A DNA stretch of 63,544 bases, the filler included, from Candidatus Woesearchaeota archaeon (lineage in GTDB: Archaea > Nanobdellota > Nanobdellia > Pacearchaeales > UBA284): assembly GCA_964354405.1 (NCBI GenBank). It is 6 parts of 5 records of this genome, joined end to end, with 100 filler letters (N's around TTAATTAATTAA, not from the genome) between each part and the next. Parts side by side here need not be neighbours in the genome. Positions count along the whole stretch, not along the records: positions 2,711 to 11,375 come from CAYGZP010000003.1; positions 11,476 to 30,652 come from CAYGZP010000003.1; 4 more parts are not named here. One strand, given 5' to 3'. The position numbers and the translations under genes are program-made. The notes beneath the pieces are model-generated. The model saw only the letters and a list, made by a program, of their open reading frames with translations, made no database searches and was not told the origin of the DNA. Below, piece after piece: positions 5,336 to 28,800 of this stretch (position 1 is the stretch's first letter; every line of letters begins with the position of its first letter).

Positions 5336-5354
5336 AGGTTATCGTTACCGATAA

Positions 5355-5519
5355 TTATTTTCCGCCAACTGGCTTGCCAGATTTTGGAAGCGGTGCGCTG
5401 GAGTATGGATTCTTGCCAGTGTTAGGTGGGTTCATATTGCCCATGCCTTCACGGATCATTCCACGGGTGCTTGCGCCTCCGCTAACTAACTTTGGGTCGG
5501 TTCCTTTTAGTGGTGTCAT
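5355..5519 (-). CDS. Small phage protein (54 aa)
   Basis: MTPLKGTDPKLVSGG...KPVGGK* fills the gap in the operon; below the ORF-track cutoff. Confidence 0.55.
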   Translation of the reverse strand: MTPLKGTDPKLVSGGASTRGMIREGMGNMNPPNTGKNPYSSAPLPKSGKPVGGK

Positions 5520-5546
5520 ATATTTAATTTTCTATGGCTTGGTTTA

Positions 5547-6044
5547 TTACAAAGCGTGAATTGCCATCCATTCAACGCTTGTTATTTCCGCAATGTTATT
5601 TTCAATGCGGATCGAAAATCCTGTAGTAGTTTTGCTTCCTACATTTAATGAGAAAAGTGGTGTGGGCTGAACTCCAATTGTAGCAGAACAAACTGGAGTA
5701 ATTGATACTGCATAGTTTGCGGTTGGAAGCGCAGCAAATGTTACAGTTCTTACAGAGTCTCCTGTAGTTACTCCAGTAATTGTTCCAACTCTTATTGTGC
5801 TAGTTTCAATCGTAGTAACCCTAACTTCTAACGCATCAATTTCATTCTGCTGATTAGCGAGAGTTTGATTGATTTGTGAAATTTGCTGTGGAGTTACATC
5901 GCCAAGACCCGGAACGAGAATTGTTCCATTGGAAAGAACCTCATCAATGAATGCTTGGAACACATTTTGCCAGTTACCAGTTGGACAAAAATCGTCTGGA
6001 ACATTTGGAAAGGTAAGTGCAGGGCTGCTGTCGGCGTTGTCCAT
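5547..6044 (-). CDS. Phage tail-associated protein (short coiled coil plus C-terminal lectin/gp53-like beta domain)
   Basis: TVTF...PTANYAVSITP...KTTTGFSI...WMAI pattern. ATG 6044. Confidence 0.5.
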   Translation of the reverse strand: MDNADSSPALTFPNVPDDFCPTGNWQNVFQAFIDEVLSNGTILVPGLGDVTPQQISQINQTLANQQNEIDALEVRVTTIETSTIRVGTITGVTTGDSVRTVTFAALPTANYAVSITPVCSATIGVQPTPLFSLNVGSKTTTGFSIRIENNIAEITSVEWMAIHAL

Positions 6045-6046
6045 AG

Positions 6047-7891
6047 CTAATTTACGATATTGTATTCCCAATATTTTTCTTGGCAACAAGAAAATGGTTC
6101 ACATTCTTGATTTTCTTCTGGGCAGTCACCAACTGGAGAATCGTCGTTGTTCTTGATGTTTGCCATTAACCTTACTCGGTCAACTGTAGCTGCGCCAGTG
6201 AGATTTACTTTAATTTGGAACTCGCTGCCCTCTACCGATGGGATACCTGCCAAATCATTACACTCACTTGGGTCTGGAGTGTTAAATTTGTAGCGTTTGT
6301 AGCGATTACCACCTCTCTGTGGAATACATTCAGTTACTTGTGGTGAACATGAATTACAACCGAATGTCGTAGGAACTTTGAGTTGTGACCAGCATGGATT
6401 AGAGTCAGAACGAAAATCAACATAACTATCTACTTCCCCTTTGATCTCACTCATCCACATTTCTCCACCAGTAATTTTTTTGCGGAGGAACTTATTCGTA
6501 GTTCCACTTCGGTTGAAGTCATACCTTCCTGTGGTAAAAAAGGATTCAATCTGCCTGCTTCCATTTGGGCCGTAATCGTCGCCTTGTGAAGCAGTAAATT
6601 CGTAGAGTCGATTCTTGTTGTCTTTATCAAACGAGAATCCAAATCCTCGCTTCTCACTTTGGATTAGTGCTGTGAGTAGCTGAGTTGGTCTAAAGCCTGT
6701 CCAGATGCCATTCCAGCGAAAAGAAAGCTGTGCGTCTGGTGCGGGTGAAGATGATTGGTCAAGGTCAAGAACTACCATTCCCCTATGATACCTATTCAAT
6801 CCTTCTACCCCTGCCGCACGATATGTCTGTGGTGCTACTGTGCTGATCAGATAGTTATTAAAGAACATCGTAGAAGCGAATTGTTTCAGCCAAGGTGTGT
6901 CGTTCGTAACCCATTTGTTTACTTCCCTCGATAGTTTACGAAGTGAGAAGTATCGTGCGAACTCAGATTGGCTATTGGAGTAGAATGCCCAACCATCGTG
7001 TGACCTAAACCAAAGTTCCGAGTTTGCCAATCCCAAGTATGGGCTTGTGCATCCGCGCCCAAGTAATGAGATGCGCTGGATGTTCGATGTATTCCATTGA
7101 CTTCTTGGTATAGACACATCCATTGAGAATGCTCCGTTACCAGTTAGGATAACAAGTTCACCTTGGCCGCGCAAGTTAGTTCCAATCTGTGGCATTACTT
7201 TCATGCCAGTGATATTCCCCATCATTGCTGGGGTAGAGAACGCGCCACCTTCTGCCCAGTATCCTATCTCTGTGAAGTTCTCGGTATTCTTGGTATCTGT
7301 AAATCCATTACCATAGATAATGTCAGATGCGTAGATTTGATTGAACTTGTCAGAGACAAAAACTCGCCCGAAAGCGTATTCCATCACAGTTCCAATCGGC
7401 ATCTTGGCGAGGTATGGATTCAACCGATAAGCTGGAATTGATAAATCACCATCCCATGCTATCGCATTTTGGTATCCGTTTTGGATATAAACTCGATCTT
7501 CGGCTTGCACGAACCATGTGTGCATCATGCCCGGATCGTTCCCTTCGATGATTTTGTAAGCTGTTGCGCTGTTGTTTACGATCTTCAGAAAGTAGATCGT
7601 TCCAGATACCGAAATCAGTATTCCATCAGCGGAGTTGTAATTTACTGCCCTATACGGATACGCCCCTTGAAAGTTTCCGTTCTCAATATCGTTAACGATA
7701 GTCGCGGATTGCCCTACTCCTGCAAGAATCGGGATATTCCGAATACTTGGTCTTGTTCGGTTTATACCTCCTCGGAATGTCCTATTAACTGACTCTGATA
7801 CAAAAGACTCTGGCAAATACGATGGGTGAGTATCCGCGTCTTGTGCAATGATACTTGTGAACCCATCAAAAACTGATCCTTCTGCTGGCAT
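6047..7891 (-). CDS. Tail tubular protein B / nozzle-stabilisation protein
   Basis: 614 aa, beta-propeller-like sequence, position in a podoviral tail module. Confidence 0.55.
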   Translation of the reverse strand: MPAEGSVFDGFTSIIAQDADTHPSYLPESFVSESVNRTFRGGINRTRPSIRNIPILAGVGQSATIVNDIENGNFQGAYPYRAVNYNSADGILISVSGTIYFLKIVNNSATAYKIIEGNDPGMMHTWFVQAEDRVYIQNGYQNAIAWDGDLSIPAYRLNPYLAKMPIGTVMEYAFGRVFVSDKFNQIYASDIIYGNGFTDTKNTENFTEIGYWAEGGAFSTPAMMGNITGMKVMPQIGTNLRGQGELVILTGNGAFSMDVSIPRSQWNTSNIQRISLLGRGCTSPYLGLANSELWFRSHDGWAFYSNSQSEFARYFSLRKLSREVNKWVTNDTPWLKQFASTMFFNNYLISTVAPQTYRAAGVEGLNRYHRGMVVLDLDQSSSPAPDAQLSFRWNGIWTGFRPTQLLTALIQSEKRGFGFSFDKDNKNRLYEFTASQGDDYGPNGSRQIESFFTTGRYDFNRSGTTNKFLRKKITGGEMWMSEIKGEVDSYVDFRSDSNPCWSQLKVPTTFGCNSCSPQVTECIPQRGGNRYKRYKFNTPDPSECNDLAGIPSVEGSEFQIKVNLTGAATVDRVRLMANIKNNDDSPVGDCPEENQECEPFSCCQEKYWEYNIVN

Positions 7892-8760
7892 TATGCGTTG
7901 ACACTCTTGATTACAATAAATCGCAATGTCAGTGTTTCAGATAAACTTGCTGCTGTGATATTCCTAATTACAATGTTTGCATTACCTGCCGCTGGAGCTA
8001 CTGCAAAATTGTATGATCCAAGCGTTCCTCCAGATACATGACTTACAATTATAATATCAGTAGCCTCAATAACCGAATTGCTCAAGTTAAATGTAACAGC
8101 AGTATTAGCTGCGAGTGCCGCACTATCGGTAACGATAATTCCAGTAGGACGATTGAGTGTAACAGCATTTGTTTTTGCCCCTGCACCTTGATTAATTGAC
8201 CCGCCAGCACCAGTATCGTATCCAATCTTGGATGAATTGCCATTAGCAAGAATAGTGTTGTTTGACGCTATTGTGCTATTCACAATAAGCGCACCAGTCA
8301 TTGTATCTCCAGCCTTGTTGAGCTTTAGAGCATCAGCAGTATCTACATATTGCTTTGTTGTTGCTTGAAGATTTGTGGTTGGATTTGCGGCGAGAGTTAC
8401 ACTTGCTGCCGTTACTACTCCAGTAGCAGTCACGCTTGCTGCATTAATTGATCCAGTAGTAGTCAGTGATTGGCTCCCAAGATCAACTGGTGCAGATTGG
8501 AGGAGACTATTCAGCGTAGCAAACTCAACACTACCAGTAGATGTTTTCCGAAGAACGGTATTATTCGCCCCATTAGTCCACGATATTGTCCCATTTGCGT
8601 TGGATATGAGAGCCTGTCCAGATGGCGGTGTCTGAAGAGTCCTATCACAAGCGGAAGAATCTTCTACAACCAATCTTTTAGCAATTCCTGTAAGCTCGCG
8701 GGGTTCGCAAAATAATGGATACTCAGTATCACAAGGAGGCGCGGGTGTGCATGGAGTCAT
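7891..8760 (-). CDS. Tail fibre protein
   Basis: ATTKQYVD and KAGDTMTGAL fibre motifs; Thr/Ala-rich. Confidence 0.7.
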   Translation of the reverse strand: MTPCTPAPPCDTEYPLFCEPRELTGIAKRLVVEDSSACDRTLQTPPSGQALISNANGTISWTNGANNTVLRKTSTGSVEFATLNSLLQSAPVDLGSQSLTTTGSINAASVTATGVVTAASVTLAANPTTNLQATTKQYVDTADALKLNKAGDTMTGALIVNSTIASNNTILANGNSSKIGYDTGAGGSINQGAGAKTNAVTLNRPTGIIVTDSAALAANTAVTFNLSNSVIEATDIIIVSHVSGGTLGSYNFAVAPAAGNANIVIRNITAASLSETLTLRFIVIKSVNA

Positions 8761-8765
8761 AGTAT

Positions 8766-9170
8766 TTAATTTAGAATGTTAGGCCAAGTTGCTTTAATTC
8801 CAGCAAGATCATCTGGAAGCGGAGTCAAAGTAACGTCGCGGAGTACTTGCTTTGCGGCAATGATTTCAACTTTTTTAACTTCATCATTAACCTCAACTGC
8901 CTTTATAAAGTCAATGTCGAGTTTTGCAAGTTTTGGTGCGCGAGCATTACGGAACTTGTCGAGATGGATAGCCTTGGCTTTCTCAATGTTTATTCTTGCG
9001 CCAAGCGCAATGTCAAACTCGTATGCGTTGAAATAGTCGTTATCAATGTCAACTGATTCGACGATCTTGTATGGAATCCCAAGCGGAACATCTTTGATTG
9101 CGTCATTAACATTACTAGTAGGAATGACTACTGCTATTTGATTGTTTGGTTGTGGGTAAGTGATAAACAT
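8766..9170 (-). CDS. Tail fibre assembly/chaperone-like protein
   Basis: R.AR...LAKLD...KQ.LRDVT...WP motif; lies between fibre genes. Confidence 0.55.
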   Translation of the reverse strand: MFITYPQPNNQIAVVIPTSNVNDAIKDVPLGIPYKIVESVDIDNDYFNAYEFDIALGARINIEKAKAIHLDKFRNARAPKLAKLDIDFIKAVEVNDEVKKVEIIAAKQVLRDVTLTPLPDDLAGIKATWPNILN

Positions 9171-9174
9171 AAGA

Positions 9175-10044
9175 TTAGTTTCCGAAGATTTGGAAGCAAG
9201 ATGTTGCTACATCATATAAATTATTAGTATAATCACCAGTTCTTACCCTCACGGCAGATGATGTATATGTTCCGCCAGATGCGAGAAATGCTGTCATAGC
9301 ACTTGTTCCTGTTGTAATTCCAGTAATTGAATAATTCACATCAGTCATCGCAGTAGTAAAATTCACAGTATAATCACCAGTTGCATTTTTCGTAACGCTG
9401 GAGACGTTGTAGCTGGAGCGGATGGTTGGGGGTGATGTAGTGCCATTAAAATTCACCCATGCTTTGGCAAGTTGAATTTGATTAACAATTCCAGTTGCTC
9501 CCGTTGCGCCTTGAGGCCCAGTTGCTCCTGCGCCTGTAGCTCCCGTTGCACCAGTTGCGCCTCCGGGTGATCCAGTAGCTCCAGTAATACCTGTGGCTCC
9601 AGTAGCTCCCGCACCCGGCCCTGTAGCACCTTGAGGCCCAATTATACCTGTTGCACCAGTAGCACCGATAGGGCCACCGCTTGCGCCAGTAGCTCCTGTT
9701 TTACCATTTAGCGAGACAATGACAATTTCATCCCCAGATGGGACAGGATTGTTCATCGTAATGGTATAGGGGACTCCAAATGTGATTGTATAGTCCAATG
9801 GGTCTTGGACGACTCCATCAATCGTTACCAAAAATGATGCGCTATTTGTTGTTCCAGCCCCATCAATATTGAATGTATCTTCAACCCCATCGCCAATATA
9901 TCCCCAGCGAATTCCTCCACCAGTCTCTGAAGCAGATATGGCTATACGAGCATAGTAAGCTGCACGATCCGCAATAGAATTAATTGCCGCCTCACTTGGG
10001 CCGCACGGATTGCATTTAGAACTTCTGGAATTTCCACAACTCAT
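9175..10044 (-). CDS. Collagen-like tail fibre protein
   Basis: G-A-T triplet repeats; C-terminal AKAWVNFNG...SYNVSSVT...GDYTVNF domain. Confidence 0.75.
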
Positions 10045-10073
10045 ATTGTTTATATATTGATTGTTTTTTATTC

Positions 10074-10493
10074 TTAGGCAAGAATTATTTTTTTAATCGT
10101 GCTTCCCTTGGGTTCTGTAACATGACCATTATCCCAAGCAATTTTTCCTTTGCCAATATGTGTTCCTCTGCTTTTAGGGTTGTCTATACGCGAGACTCGT
10201 ATTCCTTCGGCGGGAGGCCATTTTATCGTTAATGATATTTTTTCTTTAGCTGGTTTTTCTTTTTGAGTAGGTCGATAACCGAAGACAGTAACTTTTCTTT
10301 TCAGTTCATCGTTCCAATAGGTGATAGCTTTCTTTTCTACCTGACCACCTTTAATGGCAGATGACAATTGTTCAGCTACTCTTTCGGGACTGCACTCTAA
10401 TTGTTCAGCGATAGTTTCACGAGTATCCCATCCGCTCGGCCACTTGTAATGCTCTTTATTATGAGCTTCTACTATTTTGTTCCAGTTTGCCAT
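10074..10493 (-). CDS. Hypothetical phage protein (possible HTH)
   Basis: 139-aa ORF with [20 protein letters not shown]. Confidence 0.55.
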
Positions 10494-10496
10494 TGG

Positions 10497-11375
10497 TTAG
10501 TCCTCCAAAAAAATAGGCCAAGTTCCAGTTCTTCCCCGTTTCGCATCGAAAAGAAAGTATGTTTGTTGCGGTGGTTCGTATGCCGCTTTGATGGAAATGC
10601 TATATGCGTTGTGTCCAATAAGACTCCCATTGCTAATCCATTTCGGATTTTGTTGTGAGGTATGCCAGTGACCGAAAATGTCAATGTCCGCTGACCTGCC
10701 CTTATTCCAACTCGCAATCGCCTTCTCTACGGGTATGGTCAACCCGCCGATTCCCCCTTGGTATTTCAATCCATCACCATGATGCAGTCGGAATGTTTTT
10801 CCAAACACTTCAAGGTATGTGTGGTAGCTTTCCCCTACGATCCATTCCACTCCCTCAATCTCTTGCTCCAGCAGTTTGTAAAGAAGCCACTCGTAGCTGT
10901 TCTTGTAAGCTGTGCTGTGCCGAGGTTTGATTGTAGTCCTGCCGTGATTGCCAATTGAACATGGAATGATGATCCGTTCAAAGTTTCCTTCTTTTTTAAT
11001 CGTGTTGATTAGCTTGGATAGCTTTTGTCGCAACCAAAGAATAGTTTGAGTGGGTGATAATTCATTTTCTTCTCGCAATTCTTCGTGGATGTAGCCAGTC
11101 ATCAAGTCACCCAAAAGTGCAAGAACCAAGATAGGAATATCGCAACCTGCTCTTTCAATTTCGGTCAGTCGCAAAATAGCTTTGGTAGTTTTTTCAATGC
11201 GTTTATCTGCAACTTCAAGATTGAAATTGTTTAAGTGTGAAACTGTTCTTGGATCAACTTGTTCTTCAACGTGCCAGTCAGACAATACAGCTACTGCCGC
11301 GCTTGATATTCCTTGTGCCGATTCAATTTTGTATGTGTCTCTCTTAAACTTGTCTTCTTTCAGTGCAGATACAAT
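10497..11375 (-). CDS. Calcineurin-like metallophosphoesterase (5' truncated)
   Basis: SDWH, LGD, GNH, HGD and GHWH motifs; frame open to the contig end. Confidence 0.85.
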   Translation of the reverse strand: MVSALKEDKFKRDTYKIESAQGISSAAVAVLSDWHVEEQVDPRTVSHLNNFNLEVADKRIEKTTKAILRLTEIERAGCDIPILVLALLGDLMTGYIHEELREENELSPTQTILWLRQKLSKLINTIKKEGNFERIIIPCSIGNHGRTTIKPRHSTAYKNSYEWLLYKLLEQEIEGVEWIVGESYHTYLEVFGKTFRLHHGDGLKYQGGIGGLTIPVEKAIASWNKGRSADIDIFGHWHTSQQNPKWISNGSLIGHNAYSISIKAAYEPPQQTYFLFDAKRGRTGTWPIFLED

Positions 11376-11475: not shown

Positions 11476-11477
11476 GG

Positions 11478-11738
11478 GGCAGTTTTGCTGAGAATAACCT
11501 GCACGGAGTAACAGGATACCGATGTAGGACAATGGGAGACTTCGTAGATGCAGTTAAAAACATAGACAATATCATGCCTTGGGACTGTAAACGATTTGGA
11601 ATGAACTTCAGCTTAAAGAAGGTAGCTCCAATGTATGAGAAATACTTCTCAGATGTCATGGATGTCTATACAGGAGAAGGATGGTATTCCGATGGAAATA
11701 ACATTAACGCAATGAAAAGAAGCTACCCTACGCTATGA
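11478..11738 (+). CDS. Glycosyltransferase (GT-B/GT4-like), C-terminal fragment
   Basis: GSFAENNLHGVTGYRC...FSLKKVAPMYEKYF, a typical GT4 C-terminus. Confidence 0.65.
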   Translation, partial: GSFAENNLHGVTGYRCRTMGDFVDAVKNIDNIMPWDCKRFGMNFSLKKVAPMYEKYFSDVMDVYTGEGWYSDGNNINAMKRSYPTL

Positions 11739-12124
11739 ACTGGGACGAATACGGAATGAGCATAGCAGAGGTAGTTGCTAAGAAGAGCAAAGACCCGTGG
11801 AGGAAGGTTGGGGTAGTGATACTCAGAGAAGACCATTCCATAGCGTCAGTAGGGTATAATGGATTCCCTCAAGGCGTAGAGGAAGACTGGTCAGATAGAG
11901 AAGAGAGAAGGAAGTACGTAATCCACGCAGAACAGAACGCACTGAGATATACCAACCCCGGCGAAGGGAAAGTACTGGTATCTACTCTACTCCCATGCAG
12001 GGACTGCCTAAAGACCATAGCCGCCTATAAGATAAAGAGAGTCCTCTACAAAGACATCTACCATACCGATCCAATAGCACTGGAAATAGCAGAAAAAATG
12101 GGAGTCACACTAACTCAAATATGA
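11735..12124 (+). CDS. dCMP deaminase
   Basis: SKDP..KVG, GYNGFP, HAEQNA and PCRDC zinc motifs. Confidence 0.9.
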   Translation: MNWDEYGMSIAEVVAKKSKDPWRKVGVVILREDHSIASVGYNGFPQGVEEDWSDREERRKYVIHAEQNALRYTNPGEGKVLVSTLLPCRDCLKTIAAYKIKRVLYKDIYHTDPIALEIAEKMGVTLTQI

Positions 12125-12306
12125 AAATATACATACTATCAAGCGGACTAATTGGACGCGACACACTACCAGAAGCGGCGTTCAAAACCAAAAAGGATAT
12201 GAATGCTTACATAAAAAAAGAATACCCAAATGCAAAGCTATACGCAAAACTATACTGGGAAGACGATACAATGTGTCTAACAGCACAAAAGCTACCAATC
12301 CTATGA
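12121..12306 (+). CDS. Small phage protein, paralog 1
   Basis: MKIYILS...AAFKTKK...YP...YWE. Confidence 0.65.
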   Translation: MKIYILSSGLIGRDTLPEAAFKTKKDMNAYIKKEYPNAKLYAKLYWEDDTMCLTAQKLPIL

Positions 12307-12379
12307 GCGACGAAATCGTAGCACTAATAATAGCATGGAGCATAATAGTAATCTGCTTCATCATAGAAACAAGAATCAA

Positions 12380-12592
12380 ATGAAAATATACATCCTATCC
12401 AAAGGCTGGAGAAACAACAGTAATAGATGCCCGATTGCAGCATTTCGCACAAAGAAATTGCTTCGTAGTTGGGTGCTTAAAAATTTTCCACATTATTATA
12501 GAAAATCGAGAATTCATCCAAACGAGATGTATTGGGAGTCTGAATTTGGATGGCTAAGGTGTGAAGACGAAACAATCAAGGTAATAGAATGA
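12380..12592 (+). CDS. Small phage protein, paralog 2
   Basis: MKIYILS...AAFRTKK...FP...YWE; ATG 12380. Confidence 0.65.
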   Translation: MKIYILSKGWRNNSNRCPIAAFRTKKLLRSWVLKNFPHYYRKSRIHPNEMYWESEFGWLRCEDETIKVIE

Positions 12593-12735
12593 AAGACTGC
12601 CACAAAGCATTCCTAAACCACTACCCGTGGCTAACAGAATACAAAGATTTTAACAACTGGTTATTCTCAGAAGACCCAACTTGCGTAGCCTTCAGAAGAG
12701 GATGGGCAGCAGCCAACAATTATCGTAACCGATAA
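12589..12735 (+). CDS. Small phage protein (48 aa)
   Basis: MKDCHKAF...NNYRNR*, with ATGA and TAATG overlaps at its two ends. Confidence 0.55.
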   Translation: MKDCHKAFLNHYPWLTEYKDFNNWLFSEDPTCVAFRRGWAAANNYRNR

Positions 12736-13280: not shown

Positions 13281-13437
13281 TTATCGTTAACGATAACCAT
13301 ACGACATAGAACAAAGTCGCAAGCTAACCGTACGACATTAGCTTGAACTTAGCTTGCTCTGTCAAGAGATTTTTATTGACATAGAAAATACGAGTTTTTA
13401 TGGGGAGAGGGGTTTCCGCATTGGGAGCTGTCGCGCT

Positions 13438-13467
13438 GGGGTGCTATGGGGGAGGGGGGCACTGGGG
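13438..13467 (+). other. G-quadruplex-forming G-tract in the main non-coding region
   Basis: GGGG-TGCTAT-GGGGG-A-GGGGGG-CACT-GGGG. Confidence 0.6.
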
Positions 13468-13780
13468 TCAGTCACCACAGAGAAAAGAGATTCCTTTGAG
13501 TCCCTGCCTTGCCAGTGTCGCCTTATAGTATAGTCACAGCCCTACAGCGTAGCCTTGCTAGCGTTGATCATGGCTGGCGTTATTGAGACTGGAGTTATCA
13601 ATCTCACTAAGAAGATGAGATAATGCAAGCGACTTGCATTTACTATTGCGCTACGTTGGCGTGTATCGCGTTTGTTTCAATCGGGCGGTGTATCGGCATT
13701 GGCGGAAATTGGGCATATTGGATGCGTAGCTATACTTAGCAAAACACGGGAAAAAGGCTATTGAGCGAATGACTGGTCTG

Positions 13781-14004
13781 TATCGCTGTATGACGATATA
13801 TGATTAAATTGCTCACGATCGCTCATTTTCGCCTATATCGCTGTGTGTCGATATAGTAATGGAATGTCTCTCGCATCGTCATATCTTGATATGTTGATGC
13901 GTTGCCTGTCTTGTCTCTCATATCTTCGCATCATGATATTTGAATATGTCTACTGTCTTGTCTTATTCCATACCTTGTATGGCAAGTATCGTTGTATATC
14001 GATA
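13781..14004. repeat. Three TATCG-N8-CGATA inverted repeats
   Basis: 13781-13798, 13836-13853 and 13987-14004; spacers CTGTATGA, CTGTGTGT and TTGTATAT. Confidence 0.75.
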
Positions 14005-15187: not shown

Positions 15188-15320
15188 TCGCCCCGCTATT
15201 GCGTTTTTCCTACCTTTCCGCACCATCTGCCTTCCTTTCTACTCTCGCGCATTTATAGAGCTTTAATCGTTTCCGATAATCCCTCCACAGCAAACCAAAC
15301 AATAAACACCTAACAAAATA

Positions 15321-17075: not shown

Positions 17076-18703
17076 ATATAAATGACCTCATGGCAACAGT
17101 TGAGTGGTCGCAACCCATTCAACTCAATACTAAACGAGGCGTTCGACTCCTCAAGAAAGCACCGATTGAACAGGCTTTTTGGAAGGTTTACGGAGAGGAT
17201 AAGGAGCTTTTCAAGAAGCAGATGGGTGACGCTGGCATCCAGCTTGGTAAATTCCGCGATGAGTGGCAACTCACTTGGTGGTCAGACGATCAGCTTAAAT
17301 TTAAGCAGATTATCGTAACCGATACTCAGGCCGAAGCGGTTCAAGAGTTAGAGTTAAGCCCTCTACTTCACCCCGAAGGTTTATTAGAATATCAGATTAC
17401 CTCTGTGCAGATGGGTGTTGCCTCCATGAATAAGTATAACCGAGTTCTGCTTGGGCATAGCACGGGTGTAGGCAAAACATTCTGCGCCCTCGGCATTGCC
17501 AGAGAACTTGGTAAACGAGTTGCGGTTATTGCGCCATTGGCCGTTGTCACATCATGGCATCGGGCAGCTAAAATGATGAATGTCGAAATTTATGAAGCTG
17601 TTGGATGGGAGTTTTGTAAAACCGGAAAATCCAAAATCGGAAAATGGACTTGTGATTCTAAAAAGAAATTTGAATATCAACTTCCAGATGATGTCATTCT
17701 TATATTTGACGAATGCCATCGAGGCAAAGCTCCGGGAACTTCTCAGAATTCATTCTTAATTAGAGATAGTGTTGTTCAAAACATTCAAGCCATAGCATTA
17801 AGTGCAACCATTGCTGATTCTCCAGAAAAACTTTGGGCCTTGGGTCAATTTCTTGGGCTACATCAAGGAGGAAAAGATTATTATAGATTCCTTTCCGCTA
17901 ACGGATGCAGAAAGACAAGGTTTGGATTTCAATTCCAAGGTGGAAGCGCAATTCTTAAACGACTTCATCACAAGATTTATCCAGAAAGAGGAAATCGTTT
18001 GCGTCATAGTGATCTTGGTGAAGCATTCCCAGAGACATTGATTCACGCGAGGGCTTTTGATATGGAAAATACACGCGCTATTGCATCAGAATATGATGAT
18101 TTGTGTAATAGAGTAGAAGAACTTCGTATGGCCGAAAATTTCAGTGCAAATGTATTGGCCGAACAAACGCGAGCGAGACAAAAAATTGAACTTCTGAAGG
18201 CTCCTGCAATAGCTTCATTGGCAAAAGATTATATTGAAGAAGGGAATAGTATATTTATTGCTGTATCTTTTCGTGAAACAATGGAGTTTTTAATGAAAGA
18301 ACTCAATACGGATGCGGTAATTTGTGGCGGTCAATCAAAGTTAGAAAGACAAGGAGCAATAGATTCTTTTCAAAGAGATACAACGCGAGTAATAATTGGA
18401 ATTTCCGCTGCGTGTAGAGAAGGAATTTCATTGCATGACTTGAATGGTAAACATCCAAGAGTTGCATTGATATTTCCACAGCCTTCAGCATACGATTTGA
18501 AACAAGTATTAGGAAGAGTTCATAGGGCTGGAGGTAAAACAAAGAGCGTGCAATATATTGTTTACGCAGCCGGAATTCATATTGAGGAAAAAACTTGTAA
18601 TTCATTAGATGAAAAATTAAAGCGCATGGATTTGCTCAGTGACGGGGAAATCGACGCGACTATTTCCTTAGCTCCAAAAGAAGAAGAAAATAAACTGATC
18701 TAA
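17072..18703 (+). CDS. Superfamily 2 (DExH/SNF2-like) helicase
   Basis: GHSTGVGKT, DECH, SAT, EGISL and QVLGRVHRAG motifs. Confidence 0.9.
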   Translation: MNINDLMATVEWSQPIQLNTKRGVRLLKKAPIEQAFWKVYGEDKELFKKQMGDAGIQLGKFRDEWQLTWWSDDQLKFKQIIVTDTQAEAVQELELSPLLHPEGLLEYQITSVQMGVASMNKYNRVLLGHSTGVGKTFCALGIARELGKRVAVIAPLAVVTSWHRAAKMMNVEIYEAVGWEFCKTGKSKIGKWTCDSKKKFEYQLPDDVILIFDECHRGKAPGTSQNSFLIRDSVVQNIQAIALSATIADSPEKLWALGQFLGLHQGGKDYYRFLSANGCRKTRFGFQFQGGSAILKRLHHKIYPERGNRLRHSDLGEAFPETLIHARAFDMENTRAIASEYDDLCNRVEELRMAENFSANVLAEQTRARQKIELLKAPAIASLAKDYIEEGNSIFIAVSFRETMEFLMKELNTDAVICGGQSKLERQGAIDSFQRDTTRVIIGISAACREGISLHDLNGKHPRVALIFPQPSAYDLKQVLGRVHRAGGKTKSVQYIVYAAGIHIEEKTCNSLDEKLKRMDLLSDGEIDATISLAPKEEENKLI

Positions 18704-19226: not shown

Positions 19227-19254
19227 AATCTAACAGAGCAAAGACCAATGTCAA
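19227..19254 (-). promoter_or_regulatory. Sigma70-type promoter
   Basis: TTGACA-N16-TAGATT with TGn; palindrome copy 19264 lies 9 bp upstream of the -35. Confidence 0.7.
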
Positions 19255-19279
19255 ATACTTTTTTTATCGGTTACGATAC

Positions 19280-19564: not shown

Positions 19565-20551
19565 TTATGCTTCTTTCAAAAATTTCAGCCATTCGTTCTC
19601 CGCTGGATCAAACCATGATTTGTCGCCAAGGTCGATCAGTAGTTGGTGTTCTTGCACTTCTTCTGGCATATTGCGGAGGACTTCTGAGTTAGAGAAGTTA
19701 CTGACATTGAGGAGAAGGAAACGATGACCTGCTGGTTTATCGTCCTTACCTTGCTCACTACGCACTCGGTTCCTAACCTCAGTCGAGGATAGCTTCTCCG
19801 TCTTCGCGGCCTCAAGAAGTTCACTTTGCTTCTGTGCGTTGTTCTTCTCGTCTCCGAAGTTGGCGTTTCCAATCTCACGATAGACTGTGAATGGTAGCAT
19901 TGGGTCTCGTTTAGCAGCAGGGAATGCGCGGCAAGCACGGGCGTAACCGGAGACAGTTGGATAGCTCTTCTTGAATTGGGAGCAGAGTTGGTTGACTACA
20001 TCCTCATGCCCTGCGTTCTCAAGAGCTACTACTGAATCACCGATGATCCATTGTGCTCCCGATTCCAGAGTCAAACCGAAGGCGAATGCTGCCACCCAGT
20101 CTTTCATCTCTACTTCACCTTTAGGAACGCACTGAGTCATCCCTGCACCGATGTCGAACTTCTGTGTGAAGGATGACAATTCCAATCCGTTCTTCACACT
20201 CTCCACAAGGGCGATGGATTCGTTGACTTCGATAGGTTCATCCTCGGTTAATTCAACCTCAACTTCTTCAACTACTGGATTGGCGAGGCGTTCTTCTGCC
20301 ATCTCCTCGGCCATGTCCAAGTCGGCTGACATCTTCTCAAACATCTCCAGCATCTCATCTGGTGCATCGTCTTCAAGGTATTCGTTCTTAGTTACTTTTG
20401 ACCATGCTTTCTTGATGTGGGTTTCGGTGATGTTGATACCCGGCCATTCGGTCTTAACGAACTCGCCCATTTGGCGAAGGTATGTGGACAGAGGGACAAT
20501 GATTCCCTCTTGAGTTGGGCTGAACAATTCTAATTCTGATTTCTTTTTCAT
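19565..20551 (-). CDS. Hypothetical phage protein (acidic; W.IGD motif, possibly DNA-binding)
   Basis: 328-aa ORF. Confidence 0.7.
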   Translation of the reverse strand: MKKKSELELFSPTQEGIIVPLSTYLRQMGEFVKTEWPGINITETHIKKAWSKVTKNEYLEDDAPDEMLEMFEKMSADLDMAEEMAEERLANPVVEEVEVELTEDEPIEVNESIALVESVKNGLELSSFTQKFDIGAGMTQCVPKGEVEMKDWVAAFAFGLTLESGAQWIIGDSVVALENAGHEDVVNQLCSQFKKSYPTVSGYARACRAFPAAKRDPMLPFTVYREIGNANFGDEKNNAQKQSELLEAAKTEKLSSTEVRNRVRSEQGKDDKPAGHRFLLLNVSNFSNSEVLRNMPEEVQEHQLLIDLGDKSWFDPAENEWLKFLKEA

Positions 20552-20590
20552 TTTGGTGTTATAGGGTTAGGTGTTCTGGGGAGAACAAGG

Positions 20591-21445
20591 TTAATATGGA
20601 ATGTCGTCGTTGTCTTCTACAGGAGCGTCAAGGTTGAGGTCTTGTGCCGCTTGCTCTACGCACTTGGCGAATGGAGTTGTAAATCCTTTGTCCAAGTAAT
20701 ACTCATAAAGTTTAGTGAGTGCAGGCTTGCCGATTGCACCGAGCTTCTTGTCTTTGTGCGAACCACTTGGGACGATAGCAGATGCCCAATCAGCGGGGTC
20801 AAGTTCTGCTGGTTCTTCCACTTTAGCTTCAGACTTTGGCTCTGACTTGCTGATGGAGATTCCTTTGCGGTTAGCCTCGATGAAGACCGACGAGACATAA
20901 GCCCGAAGAGTCTCTTCATCTGTGACTTTGCCGAGATAGGCCATGCGAACCAAGGAGTCGATGTAAAGGTGAGTCTCTACGATTTGATCGAGTGCCTGCT
21001 CTGGATTATCGGAAACGATACTCTTGGGTATTACATAAGACGAATAAGGTGATCGAACAATTTCTTCGTTTGGTGTTTTACGCGCAGGCTCTTCACTCAC
21101 ACCATCGTATTCCACCTTTGCCGAAGCAGTGGCTTTGATGACTTGGTTGTGGATCTGCTGACCTTCTTTGTTCTTGTAGGATTCTTCCTCAAAGGTAACT
21201 CCGTTCATCCCATGCTTGCCGCGAGTCGAGGACAAGGTAATTGTCCTACCCTTGGCAGATTCTGGCTGAGTGCATTTCCAAAACGCGAGTTTGTAGTTCT
21301 TCCCATCTACTTCGATCTCGCCATTCTGAATCGTATATGGGCCGTAGTTGCCTTCGTGTTGCTTTTCTGGGAAGAGTTTAGTGATCTTCCCTGTTACTTT
21401 CTTGATGATATCTTTGGGTTCTAAACCCTCTAATTGGTTACTCAT
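20591..21445 (-). CDS. Putative single-stranded DNA-binding protein
   Basis: OB-fold-like N-terminus, acidic DNDDIPY tail, adjacent to an exonuclease. Confidence 0.6.
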   Translation of the reverse strand: MSNQLEGLEPKDIIKKVTGKITKLFPEKQHEGNYGPYTIQNGEIEVDGKNYKLAFWKCTQPESAKGRTITLSSTRGKHGMNGVTFEEESYKNKEGQQIHNQVIKATASAKVEYDGVSEEPARKTPNEEIVRSPYSSYVIPKSIVSDNPEQALDQIVETHLYIDSLVRMAYLGKVTDEETLRAYVSSVFIEANRKGISISKSEPKSEAKVEEPAELDPADWASAIVPSGSHKDKKLGAIGKPALTKLYEYYLDKGFTTPFAKCVEQAAQDLNLDAPVEDNDDIPY

Positions 21446-22307
21446 TTGATTTGTATGTTGCTTTGTAGTAGTGGCAGAAGGGCGCTACTGAGCAATAACG
21501 CTCGCAACGGATGTTTCCTCCTGCCCGTGTTTCGATTGAGTGTTTCGCTCCATAGGTAGGTAGCAATCTTTCAGCTTCCTCCAATGTCTCGCACACTTTT
21601 ACTGCTCGTTTATTACCATCTTTTTTTATGGCAAAAGTATTTGATTTAGCCCAGCGTTCTTTTGGTTCGCAAGCTGGGATAATATCGTCTGGCATTGCTG
21701 CCGCTGCTTGGTGAAGTTTGATCCTCTCCGTAGCGTAGCGGACTACCTCTTCGTTATCCCACAATGGTATGTCAACGATGTGGACTGCGCACTGGGGATA
21801 CTCTTTGTCAAACTCAGCCTTGCTCGCCTGCCAGTCCCGAAGGATAGCGACGATCTGGAGCTTCTTTGGGGAATACCCATACTCTCTCCATAACATTGCG
21901 TTGCAATTGAGTTGCATTACCCATTCATTTTTCTGTCCGAGTAGGAAAGAGAAGACTGATGTTACTTTGAAGTCAGAAAGAACTCCCTTCTCCACTTCGT
22001 ATAAATCAGTCTGACCTGTGAGTGTCCAACCATTAATCTCTTTGTAGAGACGCTTCTCAGTCATCTCTTCTTCGCCGCCTGCCAGCTCAAGAACTTTGTG
22101 AACCGACTGACCGAGCAATGCCCACACCCTATCGGATGCGTCTTCCACGATCTGGTCGGAATACCTTTTCTTAAGTTGGTTGATTTTCGGTGGCCCGATT
22201 AAGGTTGTCACCGATATGTCTGCTTTCCTTGTTCCTGCCATATACCCGTCATGGGACAAGGCGCGGAACATAGGTGCTGGGAGCGAATAGTTATTCGTTA
22301 TCGTCAT
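21438..22307 (-). CDS. PD-(D/E)XK exonuclease, Cas4/RecB-like
   Basis: G..VH..LE, E, LTGQTD, DFK, QLN and C-terminal CxxYCxxxxFC motifs. Confidence 0.8.
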   Translation of the reverse strand: MTITNNYSLPAPMFRALSHDGYMAGTRKADISVTTLIGPPKINQLKKRYSDQIVEDASDRVWALLGQSVHKVLELAGGEEEMTEKRLYKEINGWTLTGQTDLYEVEKGVLSDFKVTSVFSFLLGQKNEWVMQLNCNAMLWREYGYSPKKLQIVAILRDWQASKAEFDKEYPQCAVHIVDIPLWDNEEVVRYATERIKLHQAAAAMPDDIIPACEPKERWAKSNTFAIKKDGNKRAVKVCETLEEAERLLPTYGAKHSIETRAGGNIRCERYCSVAPFCHYYKATYKSNE

Positions 22308-22452
22308 TTGGTTCGTCCCAATAGGTAGGTCGAATGCCTTGATCCATGTCGCGGTGAGCGCACTTGTAGAGAAAATCAGATTCTCTCTCTTCTTCTATTT
22401 CGGAAGATAGATCGTATGGCTCCTCTTCCCCGTCATTGCAAGCCAAACTCAT
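22291..22452 (-). CDS. Small acidic protein (53 aa)
   Basis: MSLACNDGEEEPYDL...DDNE*, ATGA-coupled. Confidence 0.55.
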   Translation of the reverse strand: MSLACNDGEEEPYDLSSEIEEERESDFLYKCAHRDMDQGIRPTYWDEPNDDNE

Positions 22453-22697
22453 TCAGTTGGTGCTAATTTTTCCTCAAAGGAAGCCGCAAGGATTTCCGAA
22501 ACACCGCGAAGGTGATCGCCAATTTTGACCAAGGTAGCTGCGCTTGTCAGTTTACCCAGATCGAATTTTCCATCCACCGCCGACGATGAAATAAGGCGAA
22601 GGTAGATTTCTTTTTGAAGCTCACTTGGAGCGGTTGTTTTTGTAGGTGTGGGTTTATCTTTCATTAGTGTTTTATGGACGGGTGTTGTGCCGTTCAC
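22449..22697 (-). CDS. Hypothetical phage protein
   Basis: First gene after the promoter; start is GTG 22697 or a downstream ATG. Confidence 0.6.
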   Translation of the reverse strand: MNGTTPVHKTLMKDKPTPTKTTAPSELQKEIYLRLISSSAVDGKFDLGKLTSAATLVKIGDHLRGVSEILAASFEEKLAPTE

Positions 22698-22703
22698 AAG
22701 GCG

Positions 22704-22731
22704 AATCTACATCCTCCGATTATCGTGTCAA
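22704..22731 (-). promoter_or_regulatory. Sigma70-type promoter of the recombination operon
   Basis: TTGACA-N16-TAGATT; palindrome copy 22753 lies upstream. Confidence 0.7.
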
Positions 22732-22771
22732 CATTTTTTTGTAGTTTTTTTATTATCGTTTCCGATAACAG

Positions 22772-22807
22772 AAAACGCACCCCAGATTTTAGTCCGAGGT
22801 GCGTCCC
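22772..22807 (-). terminator. Intrinsic terminator after the giant virion gene
   Basis: GACGCACC..GGTGCGT-TTTC on the minus strand. Confidence 0.55.
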
Positions 22808-22869
22808 CTAATGAATAACACGAAACAGCAACAAGCTGCGGAGGTAGATTACATGAGCCTCTGCGGGTG

Positions 22870-25800
22870 TCAAGGCTTTTTGGCCGCTTGCCTAACTTTG
22901 TTCTCTGCTACATCCCTCGCACGATTCCCGATCCTCTCAACTGCCTTGCTGTAGAACTCCGGTTTAGCATTAAAAAGTTTGTCGTAGTTTTTCTTCATGG
23001 AGGTTGTGAGGATAGTTCCGTATTCCCTCACGAACATCTCGTATTCTTTATTGGTCGGTTGCCTGTCGAGCCTTTGTGCAAGCTGATTCCGAGTCGGTAT
23101 GCTTGGCCCTCCACCTTGCTTCAATACCAACTCATGGAGCTTGATTGATTCTCTGTCAGTCGGGATGTCATAGACAATCGGAACGCCGAGCTTGAACATC
23201 TTGCTTGCGAAGTCAGTTGAAAGCGATGGTTCACCAAATGCGTTCAAAGATTTCGGTGCTACAGCAGGCCCGATAAATGGGATGTTTGACCACACCGCTC
23301 CATCCAATGTTCTCCTGTCAATCGGATCGTTGAGGAAGTTTGAGAGGTTGCTTGCAAGGCTTGTTCCCAATACGGGAATCAGAGTCTTCGCAGGGAAAGT
23401 CAATCCCTTGGCAACGCCCTCTACACCGATGTCTCCGTAGGTTCCGAAGAGTGATTTAGTGGTGAACGCATATGGGCCGCGACGAAGGGCAGCATCAAAT
23501 AAAAACCCTGCTACGATTGCCGCATCTTCCAGTTGTGCGGGTGTCTTGGTTTGTTGCTTCTGCTTCTTGCGAATCTCAAGGTCATCAATCGCTCCAAGCA
23601 TCATCGCAGGCCAAGTGAACGCTTCAAATCCCCTCATCATATTCAGAGTGAATTTGGTTTTACCAAACGAAAGGATCATCGAGTTCGGCTTGTTGCCTGC
23701 CTTATACCAAGAGTCGTAAAACTGAGCGTCATCTTTCCTCTGTGGCCCGTTACCAGTAAATACTATCTTGAACTCATCCTCATCTTCTGGATCGTCAGTT
23801 GAGCCTGCGCGGAGGGCCATGAGTGCGAACAATGCTATAGTTCCGGCGGCTGCTTCGTTGAATCTTTGCTGGCGTTGGAAGTCACTACCCAAAGACTGGG
23901 CATAGCGGGATTCAATGTTTCTATTTTTTAAGGCAGCATCAACCATGATACGAACGAATCCATAAGGCGAGAACCATGCTGTCTCACGAATTACGCGAGC
24001 AGGGACGATGGCGAATCCATAGATTATTCGGCTGAAGATTTTGATGAATTGGCTATCGCTTCTATTGGCAGCGTTGGCTACAGACTCCAGCAACCACAAG
24101 GCAGGAGAGGATGCCATGCCAGCGTCTTTTAGATTTGTCGCCTCTTCTTTGAATGCGTCGAGCGATTGCCTGTTCCTACCTACCGAAGACAGAGCATCGT
24201 TGATAGCGGCATCCATTGCGGATTTGATTGCCTCTACTTTAACGCCTTCCTTCTCCAAGGATTTTTTCCAAGATGAAATGTAGAACTCATCTGCCAAGAT
24301 GCTCGCTTTGTTTTTATCGGTTCCGATAGCGATTTGTTGGAGATAGAAATCATTCTTCGCTTTCATCATGGCAGCGAAGACTTCATTAGCCTGCTTGTTA
24401 TTCATCCCCTTGTTCTTCATTACCGCCATCGCATACTTACTGATGTTTTGGTTCTGAAGAGCGGCAATCGCTCCGTAGTCGAGGGCATTCAAGATACGAC
24501 GAACATAATCCATCATACCAACCATCATGTTCTTTACGCCATCTGCCCGTTCTTTCGCATTCTTACTCTTGGTGAATTGATCTACACCCTTACGGTAGAG
24601 TCGAAGAAGATTATCATCATTCACGATGTAATCCACATTGGAATAGACAGTGACATTGTTCTTGAAGGAGAACGCAACTGTATTTGCCCATGACTTGATC
24701 GAGTCAACGAATGCTGTAGCCGCCCTGCCAATAGCTTTGGCATCACCCTTGATTGCGCCAGACCCTGCTTCCACGATAGCATTCCGCATAGCAAATGCGA
24801 TTGGTGAGAATGAGTTCACAGTCAATGTCGGGATACCACTCAAGGCTTGAGCATCGTAGTATTGTCCGATGACATCCCTTGCTCTGATAGGCAACTTAGC
24901 CTTAGAAATAACATCTTGGATTGCTTTGTAGGCTTCTGCTTTTTTAAGCTCCCCCGATTTTGGATCAGCGAGGATAGCGTCATTCTTGAGCAGGGTCTTA
25001 TATTGCTCTGGAGAAAACCCAGTCCATCCATTCAATGCCGCCATGTCGCTTAAAACATTCCTTGCAGGGTCTAATGCGCCAGCGCGGAGGGCTTGCAATA
25101 CCTTTTGGAATGCTCTGCGGCTTCTTGTATCTCCAGCTTTCCAAGGTGCAGTCTTGCTAATAGCATCTGTGAATGCCTGCTCCTGCGCCATCGTGAAGCG
25201 TTTCTGGAGCGAGATGTCCATCAGTTTTGCTATGCGTTCGGCTTGTGCTGTTGGTAGTCCTGCTTTACGAAGATAGTCACGCATGACCTCATATCTCCAA
25301 TTAGGATTCTGTTGATCTTCAAGAGGAGTATCTTTAATTGCTTTGACAATCTCACTGATTGGCCCTTTCTCTATCGCCTTGTTGATGGAAGATAGTTCTC
25401 TTGAAAGGCTATTGATCTCATGCTGTCTCCATACGATGTCAGCCAGTGTCTCTGCTGCTGCTACCTCTACTCCTGCTTCTTGGAGTTTGGCAACTAAAAG
25501 GGATTTCCAAGGAGCTTTGCGCCCCATGTCTGGACGTTGCTTTAAATCATTAGCTACGATAGCACGGACATCATTTGTGATCTGTCTTGCTGCTGTTGGA
25601 TCAAATGAAGGTGTATCAGATTGAATCTTGGCGAGCTTTTCAATCTCAGCGTCCGCTTGTCTCTGAACTTTCTTGTATTCCTCATCAAGTTCTGCTTCCT
25701 CAGTCTGACGTTTTTCCCTGCCTTTTTCGGTAGCCTTCGTGAACTCTTCCTTGATCTTACCAACTAAGTCAGTCCCAGTTCTGCCGCCAACCGATTCAAG

Positions 25801-28800
25801 CTCATCAGTCAACTCTTGCTCGCTTACTTGTGGAGTCTTCTCTACCGCTGCATAAGCATCCTTGATAGATTGAATTTGATCTTTGGTTGGGTTAGGCCCG
25901 TAGATGAACTCTGCTACATAGTTAGTGTAGGCATCCTGTTCAGCTTGCGCCATTTTTAAAAATCGTTGAGCCAACTCAAGCCTTGCGCGTAAATCTCTGG
26001 CAGCATCGCTTACACCGATTGCAGCAGTCGGTAGTTTATTGATGTTGGTCAACATTATGCCAAGCAATTTCTTATTTCCTTCTGCTGCGAGTCTAATCGA
26101 ATATTCAAACAAGTCGTTAATGAACAACGCTGCACCCATGCTGATCTCACTCGCCGCTCCAGACTCATCTACTATCCTTCCAACATCGTTCAGTTCTTTA
26201 GCGAAATCAGTTCCACCCCTACCAATCAGTCTTCCCAATGCACGGAATGCTTCAGTAGTATTTTTATCTGATACTTTGGTAGGATTAAACTTCTTTCGGA
26301 GGAGTTCTTGAGTCTTGGCAATGATGCCTTCTGGAGTTTTCTTTGGTGGGCCAACTTCTTCGCCCACGATTTGTTCTGGTTTTCCAGTTGGCGCGGGTTC
26401 TGGAGTTGATTCAAGTAATTCAATTTTATCACTTGTTGGAACGGACTTAATTTTCGATGGTGATGCAGATGTTATTGAATCAAGCCAAGTAGCAAGTGTT
26501 TCATCTGGAGAAAAGTTTTCTGATATTGCATTCCAAAGTTTTTTTAATTTTGCTGCAATTTCTGTAAAGAATTTATCAACTAAAGATTTAGGTTTTTCTC
26601 TTGTAGCTGACCACTTCGCAACCTCGTCAGCAAACCATTCTTTAAAAGAACTACGATAACGCTCCCATTTTTCAACCCTAAGTTCTTGAGGAAATGGAGC
26701 TTTGGGATCAAGCCAATCTGCATCAGTCATCCACTCCCATATTCTTCGTTGATCGGCAATAGAAGGAACTCCATCTTTACTATACCTTGATGCAAACCAT
26801 TTATTATATTGTGCAATGATTTCATCTTTTGTTTTTTGATCTGCATTAGAAAACTCAAGTTCCATTATTGCATGACCAATTTCGTGAGCCATTGCTGATG
26901 GTGTTGCTTTTGATGAAACAGCAACTGTTAAATCATTCCTTGACCAAGTTCCTCCAACACTATCGCCAGCAAGTGCGTTTTCTGTGTTTTTCTTATTCGC
27001 TAAATAAACAAGCTGATCTAATCTTGTAGCTTTTCCAGATTTTTGTTTTTCATCCCATTGCTTTTCAAGTCTCGTAAGAGACTCTTCCATGCTTATAGCT
27101 TTGACTCCAGCGGACTTTAACCCCGGAAATAAATTTATTAAAGCATTTCCATATCCAATTGGATCAAGGACTGGAGCTTGCGGTTTTATTTTTGACTTTG
27201 GTTTACCTACGGGTTCTGCTGGTGTTATCGTTTCCAATACTGCGGGGGTAGCAGATGGTGCGGATTTTTCAAGCCTATCAAGTTCTGGCATTACATCGTT
27301 CTTGATGTAGTCAAGGATGTCACGCTGCCTATCAAGCTCTGATTTGTTGAACTTCTTTGCGAATGCTTTCTTTTGCGCTGGAGTCTTCGCCTTTGCTTGC
27401 TCAACTTGATAGTTACTAATGTAGGATTGCGCGGTATCACGAATCTGTTGAACCCGTGTAAAGCGTGACGCAAGTTGTTCTTTGTTCTGAACTTTGATTG
27501 GAACAAGATTCTGAAGTTCTGGTTGTGGTGCTTCAAACATTGGATGCCCGACAACGATATTGGATACGATGTCTCCTTCTTGAACATCAACTCCAGCCTT
27601 TCTTGCATCGTATTCTGCAAGCCTTTTAACTTGTTCTAAATTTGGTTCTCTACCTTGAGATTTACGAAGTGTAATTACATCGCGGATAGTTTCTGCCTGA
27701 TCATCAGTCAATGGCTCAATAACAGGCGCAACCTCTGCGGCGGGTGCTTCTGTTACAGCAGGAGTCTCGGCTACGGGAGCAGGCGTGATAGCGGGAGCTT
27801 CTTGGGCAACTGGTAAGGATTCCTTAATAGTTGGTTCGGTGGGCGCGGCAGGCAATTCAGCAGGCTTGGGTATAGATACAGGCTTGCGTGTTATTCCACC
27901 AAACACATCATAGATTTGTTCTTCTCTTCCGTATGTTGCGCCGGGAATTTCTGTAGGCAATACATCAGTTGGTAATGGCTTCGGTGCAGGTTTAGTAATC
28001 GCTTTTGCCAATTCAATCTGTTGCTTCTCTGCTTCGGTTATCGTTTCCGATAATCCTGCTTTGTTAGCCACTCCTTTGAATGCACTCAAGTTTCTCTGTG
28101 CTTCACTCAATTCCAACTTCAACTTCTGCGCTTCTTGTGAAGTAGGTTCTAAAGCATCGTAGGCTTCTTGCAGGTTAGCGACAGCATTCTCGCGGCGAGC
28201 TAATTCTTTTACTACAGATTGCGTTGCTGGTGTGTTTTCTGCCAAAAGCTCGTTGGCTACTTGATTGGATTGTTTATCAATCTTTTTCTCTTCTTTTTGT
28301 TCTGGAGAAGTAAGTGCCTCAACGCCTCCAAATCCACCACCAATTAAAAGACCAGCAGTAGCTTCCATTGTCGCCGCTGGGATTACACCCTGCATAGTCG
28401 GGACATCTACACCGATTCTTTGGAGCGCGACATTCTCAGCAATCTTTTCTTGTCCACCTTGCAATGCTTCAATAGGAGCTTCAGAGAATCCTCCCTTGAT
28501 TACAGCTTTGATTATATCTTCACTCGCTTCTTTGCCTGCGCCCGTAATCAAACGAGTCATTATCTTTTCAGCACCAGTCGAGGATGCGGCGGCTCCAAGT
28601 CCTGCGCCGATAAGAATCTGATCCAAGTTCTTTCCGTTATAGGCTTGAGCCTCGGTTGCTATGTCATCAATCTTATCTTCTGGCAAACCTTGCTGACGAA
28701 GTTCTTCTTGGACTGCTGTGTAGATTTGACCTTTAATTGATCCTGCTCCCTGCGCTGCACCTATACCCATCTGTAGACCAATAACGCCAGCCCTGCCTAA

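Follow-up and report, generated by a model that had tools for sequence, protein, structure and literature searches.

A clade-wide array of symmetric 14-bp sites in a phage family, and a predicted ParB-type protein as its candidate binder

What reads a short palindrome that recurs about every 2 kb along a phage genome? The question is raised by a stretch of DNA of 63,544 nucleotides from an assembly of a Candidatus Woesearchaeota archaeon (the window), which consists of five contigs joined by N linkers. Two of its pieces come from the ends of one 51,842-bp phage contig (G000:C3, hereafter C3), 2711-11375 being its first 8.7 kb and 11476-30652 its last 19.2 kb; this contig carries the dyad TATCG-N4-CGATA as a genome-wide array. 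The array is real, clade-wide and under unusual selection, and its kind is already known but unexplained. With some reserve, we lean towards the reading that the array is bound by dimers of the phage's own ParB-type protein (328 amino acids (aa), encoded at 19565-20551), which would sit on the genome as fixed anchors at intervals of about 2 kb, with KorB-like global control as their most likely job.

Eleven exact copies of the dyad were found in the window, against none in each of 100 shuffles; with one mismatch allowed, 14 sites were found (the 11 exact sites plus three), compared with a mean of 1.0 and a maximum of 4 in the shuffles. These counts and positions (Table 1) agree with those of the initial annotation, as does the absence from the window's archaeal contigs: across the remaining 50 contigs of the assembly (782 kb), those included, there is no exact site. 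C3 as a whole holds 20 exact and four one-mismatch sites, about one per 2 kb. The element had been described as a 16-bp palindrome; the dyad is real, but its constant core measures 14 bp: the outer bases, T and A, are only preferred, and the full TTATCG-N4-CGATAA is perfect at five of the 14 sites. The 4-nt centre, correctly said to be constrained and symmetric, matches [GT][AT][AT][AC] at all 14, and arms and centre are both symmetric. In the 19 full genomes of the family, a scan of dyad spacers counted 402 exact dyads with 4 nt, 15 with 5 nt, 12 with 8 nt and 0-1 at most other lengths; only the 4-nt spacer is strongly enriched. TATCG half-sites show no genome-wide enrichment. A 5-nt-spacer dyad at C3 21053 lies within TerL, at the identical place in eight genomes, and could be a tolerated variant or reflect a coding constraint.

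Conservation in related phages, which the initial annotation had named as a test, was found throughout. All 134 related IMG/VR loci, which overlap one another, carry at least one exact site. Among 30 records searched whole, each of the 25 long family records carries 15-32 exact sites, against 0-1 in the reversed control; the five unrelated records have 1-2 each. GTAC is missing among the centres because it is avoided genome-wide in 16 of the 19 genomes (0-4 occurrences vs about 140 expected). Centre preferences shift in all three divergent genomes (G005, G019 and G024); A at the first centre base in 9 of 40 half-sites of G005 is paired with a Thr-to-Ser change, and the same was seen, anecdotally, in three short loci.

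The placement of the sites argues for selection on the DNA itself. Eight of the 14 window sites lie entirely inside open reading frames (ORFs), one spans a stop/start and five are intergenic, in keeping with the earlier statement that most copies are intragenic; family-wide, however, the share is half, with 201 of the 402 exact sites in ORFs, 180 intergenic and 21 at edges. As 89% of the DNA is coding by ORF calls, intergenic sites are enriched about fourfold. Nor are the three reading frames used equally, as the counts are 130, 67 and 4 and two frames dominate. The fits to gene junctions that had been pointed out hold. In the coding sequence of C3, 10 sites were counted, compared with 0.63 under synonymous shuffling (maximum 3 in 200 shuffles), and the codons are frozen: the site occupies the same codons of the 614-aa gene in 19/19 genomes, of TerL in 18/19, of DnaB in 17/19 and of the SSB-like gene in 16/19. 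At the site of the 614-aa gene three codons are invariant, whereas invariant columns make up 7% of the background. The proposal that selection acts on DNA rather than protein is thus upheld, and selection on the array as a site for a dimeric protein is supported.

Lost sites are often replaced nearby. The DnaB site sits in an alternative column (294) in G005 and G024, and all seven genomes without the main site of the helicase gene carry another site in that gene. Gaps between sites are more even than random, with a coefficient of variation (CV) of 0.50 in C3 (p 0.0002); evenness reaches p<0.05 in 16 of the 19 genomes, and again in 16 under a junction-aware null. The three genomes without significant evenness belong to a subclade with dense early-region sites. 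Even spacing, together with replacement of lost sites in essential genes, points to a distance constraint of a few kilobases, which ordinary operators do not have. In that subclade (G002, G003, G007 and G014; loci L095-L097, L101, L105, L106, L113, L119, L126 and L129), early-region sites stand every 200-700 bp, and the long early region also holds other repeated units.

Which protein binds the sites? A natural experiment is offered by a sister clade and a distant phage. A sister clade has a virion module homologous to that of C3 (capsid 49%, portal 40%, TerL 42%), but only 0-1 exact sites in each of five near-complete genomes and three in 657 kb of loci; de novo searches of these five genomes yielded no other palindrome of comparable strength (log p about -10 to -13 vs -90 for the C3 motif). 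Conversely, G088 (L603-L605), a distant complete 48.8-kb phage found through a motif scan (portal 22%, TerL 29%), has nine exact sites vs 0.13 expected, with the same centres and all in ORFs, and 19 sites with one mismatch. Of 32 core-family profiles, only that of the 328-aa family was both detected in G088 (E 2e-21) and missing from the five sister genomes, absence here meaning profile detection, below the reach of which more diverged homologs are possible. The other four core-family matches in G088 are virion-module genes that the sister clade has too. The G088 homolog is 226 aa long and 27% identical; it retains the beginning of the predicted recognition helix but not the N-terminal region. 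In metagenome loci of at least 5 kb with the 328-aa gene, mostly of the same family, the site is present in 48 of 48. Scans for further distant clades with P0117, P0119 and P0317 were empty, a query with the G088 homolog matched only itself, and no close relatives of G088 were found in IMG/VR. Array and 328-aa gene thus co-occur. Two ORFs proposed earlier as binders fared differently: 10074-10493 is present in 1/18 relatives and is not supported, whereas 19565-20551 is, by fold and by co-occurrence with the motif, the best candidate.

The 328-aa protein gave no informative Pfam or PHROG match. In the ESM Atlas, the named clusters closest to it, both in features and in predicted structure, are ParB-HTH-like (HTH, helix-turn-helix), leads that fall below the Atlas naming bar. 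The AlphaFold model of residues 140-274 has a pLDDT (predicted local distance difference test) of 88, and with this domain model the first Foldseek rows were Noc, Spo0J and ParB (probability 0.89-1.0, E 0.13-0.9). With VIA, the scores were Z 8.0 for ParB (root-mean-square deviation (rmsd) 6.7, 117 aligned), Z 7.7 for Spo0J (rmsd 4.8, 106 aligned), Z 6.0 for KorB (rmsd 3.6, 110 of 114 aligned) and Z 5.9 for SopB. The structure scores are modest but concordant across methods, and a ParB-type helix-turn-helix domain is predicted at the level of the fold. From co-occurrence and predicted fold together, the 328-aa protein probably binds the palindrome sites; its dimerisation and its job are what we infer beyond that. 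The ParB_N CTPase domain (PF02195) had no match in the assembly, while the same profile was positive in 10 of 14 controls, and no cognate ParA was found with PHROGs in 59 ORFs of C3 or in 97 of the 116 representatives of accessory families, the other 19 being mostly long ORFs. The analogy with ParB and Noc drawn at the outset stands for the predicted DNA-binding fold and not for the CTPase domain, and given both negatives partition proper is not supported.

How might such a protein act? A ParB-type dimer would dock on every site; the 328-aa gene would be expressed with those of an exonuclease and a single-stranded DNA-binding protein (SSB), and KorB-like global control would follow. Promoter-proximal sites (about 14%, that of its own operon included) would repress initiation, and the remaining sites, acting as roadblocks or anchors irrespective of position, would serve to silence the DNA and to organise it. 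Since the CTPase domain is missing, no sliding is expected, and many evenly spaced fixed sites would stand in for it. With one mismatch allowed, 67 of 479 sites fall between -60 and +35 relative to a sigma70-like -35 box, compared with 18 expected (3.7-fold), some of them inside the spacer that separates the -35 and -10 boxes or over the -10 box itself; 412 lie elsewhere. The sites at 19264 and 22753 are upstream of -35 boxes, as had been noted, and the exo-SSB-328-aa operon has a site ahead of its promoter in nearly all family genomes (Table 1). Most sites are not ordinary operators, because no more than 67 of the 479 are near promoters and the control region of the XRE gene discussed below is mostly site-free. 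A half-site-like word at 22716-22725, directly 3' of the -35 box of the operon's promoter, is retained in most relatives. Helical phasing of sites to the -35 box (offsets -45, -36/-35, -32 and -25/-24) is not claimed, the independent promoters being few.

Several observations weigh against binding by the 328-aa protein or against the control proposed for it. Simple silencing does not readily account for the sites in late virion genes, and neither an integrase nor ParA was found in the ORFs searched with PHROGs. Sequence searches of Pfam and the PDB gave no ParB link; the best Foldseek E value (0.13) is not significant, the VIA rmsd values are 3.6-6.7 Å, and the Rubisco chaperone Raf1 scores Z 8.2 (rmsd 5.7, 122 aligned), on a par with ParB. 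In G024, the predicted contact residues of the protein are unchanged although the centre preference shifts. G088 is a single distant genome, itself found via the motif, and the evenness of its sites falls short of significance (CV 0.74, p 0.12). The sister clade avoids other 4-mers and so likely has another host, which makes the contrast with it, taken alone, compatible with a host binder. Lastly, the 19 genomes are related, so counts and spacing tests are not independent.

The main rival keeps the same ParB-type binder and assigns the array a job that is not mainly transcriptional: marking self DNA, blocking travelling host or phage enzymes, or anchoring replication, recombination or packaging. 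It fits the intragenic sites as well as transcriptional control does. The 412 sites away from sigma70-like promoters speak for it, as do G088, where one of 19 sites is near such a promoter and every exact site is in an ORF, the even spacing and replacement, which point to a maximum tolerated gap, and the position of the 328-aa gene beside the exonuclease and SSB genes. The promoter enrichment and the sites within promoters are harder to place on this account, and a role in packaging or entry loses weight, since the homologous virion module occurs in the sister clade without the motif. Overall, we regard a mainly non-transcriptional array as rather unlikely, though to be taken seriously.

A second rival, which we consider unlikely, is a host regulator or nucleoid protein for which the phage has collected sites. 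In its favour, the motif-free sister clade differs in 4-mer avoidance, as expected for another host. Against this, matches in GTDB (at least 120 stretches) come from scattered taxa, and the full 16-mer was found once in 48 and twice in two of 50 GTDB genomes with matches. Among 301 Verrucomicrobiota genomes, sampled as a guess at the host and not from a result, 43 had a match, with at most four in a genome, whereas the control reached seven. G088 and three family members without GTAC avoidance still keep the motif, and the shared 328-aa phage gene would be left unexplained. With no enrichment in the genomes sampled, the idea of a host chromosome-organising site is not sustained; a dense array in a host among them is unlikely, and a few sites in an unsampled host are possible.

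The third candidate is the phage's XRE helix-turn-helix protein (C3:23828-24241, outside the window), acting as a stoperator-like repressor. Its gene is present in 18/18 relatives and missing from the sister clade, it has Pfam HTH matches, and G005 and G024 carry a site in its control region. However, two XRE profiles gave no match in G088, and G005 and G024 have a different predicted recognition helix with the arms of the site unchanged. In 17 of 19 genomes no site lies in the XRE gene's own divergent promoter region, where lambda-like operators would be looked for, and the nearest is 433-447 bp away. Binding by this protein is thus improbable, slightly more so than binding by a host protein. 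Least probable by far is a small RNA or single-stranded DNA hairpin acting in processing, pausing or priming: seven tested sites fold as 5-8 bp (-4 to -9 kcal/mol), as any palindrome would, and on one strand the centres GAAA and GTAA resemble GNRA, but the logos show fixed arms without compensatory exchange, the centre is itself symmetric, as in two half-sites, two of 87 short co-directional junctions have GAAA and one has GTAA as the transcript-strand centre, and an Rfam search matched no family.

The preferred reading, binding by the 328-aa protein, is set in the following genomic context. C3, with a GC content of 44% vs 31-39%, probably entered the archaeal genome as a contaminant during binning; window positions 1-2610 and 30753-63544 are further contigs from the same assembly. 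PHROGs labels on C3 are TerL, a lambda-O-like initiator, DnaB, an SF2 helicase, RusA, an exonuclease, a weak SSB and an XRE-type regulator; capsid, portal and scaffold genes, without database match, are putatively labelled from size, order and conservation. Direct terminal repeats are present in several relatives. No prophage was found in GTDB by capsid patterns, and INPHARED gave no match for TerL or for the 614-aa and 328-aa proteins, the C3 exonuclease having solely distant matches (at most 41%). C3, G001 and G011 avoid CTAG, which G019 and G024 do not; avoidance in the sister clade concerns CCGG and GCGC and varies in degree. Such avoidance is a clue to host restriction systems. At C3 24242-24297, back-to-back -35 boxes stand between the XRE gene and a divergent 122-aa gene in 19/19 genomes; located upstream of the initiator and DnaB genes, this is a lambda-like switch layout, with no integrase detected. 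The half-site cluster listed in Table 1 is itself unusual, as nine half-sites in 400 bp were reached in none of 500 simulations; 8-nt-spacer dyads like those in it occur in 8 of 19 genomes. It may be an origin, a terminus or a second binding mode.

Table 1. Dyad sites and associated features in the window (window coordinates)
Feature	Position	Strand	Remarks
Dyad site	5339..5354		fills gap between a stop and the following ATG, virion operon
Dyad site	7686..7701		within 614-aa virion gene; identical codons in 19/19 genomes
Dyad site	8123..8138		within 289-aa tail-fibre-like gene; in 8 genomes of that 15-member family
One-mismatch site	10223..10238		within ORF common to 1/18 relatives
Dyad site	12720..12735		overlaps stop of 48-aa ORF and ATG of 12735-13280
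Dyad site	13281..13296		immediately 3' of stop codon; edge of long non-coding region
Half-site cluster, non-coding	13664..14004 (C3 34853-35194)		9 TATCG half-sites; 8-nt-spacer dyads at 13781, 13836 and 13987
One-mismatch site	15264..15279		intergenic, early region
Dyad site	17310..17325		within SF2 helicase gene; this column in 12/19 genomes, other columns in remaining 7
Sigma70-like promoter TTGACA-16-TAGATT	19227..19254	-	9 nt downstream of 19264 site; consensus match alone
Dyad site	19264..19279		3' of final stop of exo-SSB-ParB-like operon; upstream of -35 box
328-aa candidate binder	19565..20551	-	residues ~145-270 (window ~19730-20134), predicted ParB/Noc/KorB-type DNA-binding fold
SSB-like gene	20591..21445	-	weak PHROG match, E 0.0025; operon of 328-aa gene
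Dyad site	21006..21021		within SSB-like gene; 16/19 genomes
Exonuclease gene	21438..22307	-	operon of 328-aa gene
Sigma70-like promoter	22704..22731	-	promoter of operon holding ParB-like gene; consensus match alone
Dyad site	22753..22768		upstream of 22704..22731 promoter; site there in 17/19 genomes; candidate autoregulation
Dyad site	24314..24329		within 2137-aa gene
One-mismatch site	27225..27240		within 2137-aa gene
Dyad site	28038..28053		within 2137-aa gene

How does the array compare with known systems? In the literature covered (mostly open-access main texts), no paper was found on the motif sequence or on a stand-alone ParB domain that reads such an array; statements on published systems refer to the parts of the cited papers covered here. 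The stoperators of Cluster A phages likewise number more than twenty sites genome-wide, many in short intergenic gaps, and are proposed transcription roadblocks; they are asymmetric 13-mers, oriented with transcription and bound by the monomeric repressor of a temperate phage (PMC9283540), whereas sites of the C3 family are symmetric and half intragenic. Stand-alone ParB-HTH-like proteins are represented by LmbU, DUF6192 and DUF3102, the nearest named ESM Atlas clusters and so far leads; LmbU regulates a gene cluster and is not described as a genome-wide array binder (PMC10763038). ParB-parS and Noc-NBS share the predicted DNA-binding fold by structure search, and their specificity is set by few residues of the HTH region (PMC7383237); they are chromosome-acting CTP clamps, unlike a stand-alone phage domain with about one site per 2 kb.

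By sliding driven by CTP, KorB of plasmid RK2 represses promoters from OB sites that lie either 4-10 bp or 45 to more than 1000 bp upstream of them (PMC11790492). The likeness lies in a ParB-family DNA-binding domain (here predicted), a 16-bp site and proposed global repression on a mobile element. KorB, however, is a CTP-dependent sliding clamp that needs KorA, whereas the 328-aa protein is without the CTPase domain, and neither a KorA-like nor a ParA partner was found for it. If binding holds, a ParB-family domain would work without its clamp, and protein and site would form a compact pair that is seldom met in the sampled bacterial genomes; both the small domain and the 14-bp site lend themselves to direct tests in vitro.

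The closest parallel is found in Cluster O mycobacteriophages, so the element, which had been called undescribed, is, in the literature covered, new in its motif sequence and not in its kind. There, a 17-bp dyad occurs in 34 copies in Corndog, about a third in genes and four near promoters; the arrays are denser in one region and absent from the host, the phages have no integrase or parAB, and the function is unexplained (PMC4351075). The paper names three candidate binders and tests none, and the parts covered contain no analysis of spacing or turnover (PMC4351075). Both systems are genome-wide dyad arrays (20 exact copies in C3, 15-32 in the related records) with invariant arms, an AT-rich variable centre, many intragenic sites and few at promoters; both groups of phages encode a ParB-like protein (predicted here), with no integrase or ParA found in either (here among the ORFs scanned). 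They differ in sequence and geometry (a 7-3-7 dyad there, 5-4-5 here), and Corndog gp90 has a ParB N-terminal domain and an hhalign probability of 0.1% to the domain of the 328-aa protein. Cluster O arrays had lacked an assigned function, and here one specific candidate reader has been picked by a natural experiment. Less probably, the C3 family represents a class of phage genome marking in which a clamp-free ParB-type domain would read an evenly spaced, self-renewing array in genes, tag the chromosome as self, and stop or steer travelling enzymes. Such genome-marking logic, if true, could explain the Cluster O arrays as well.

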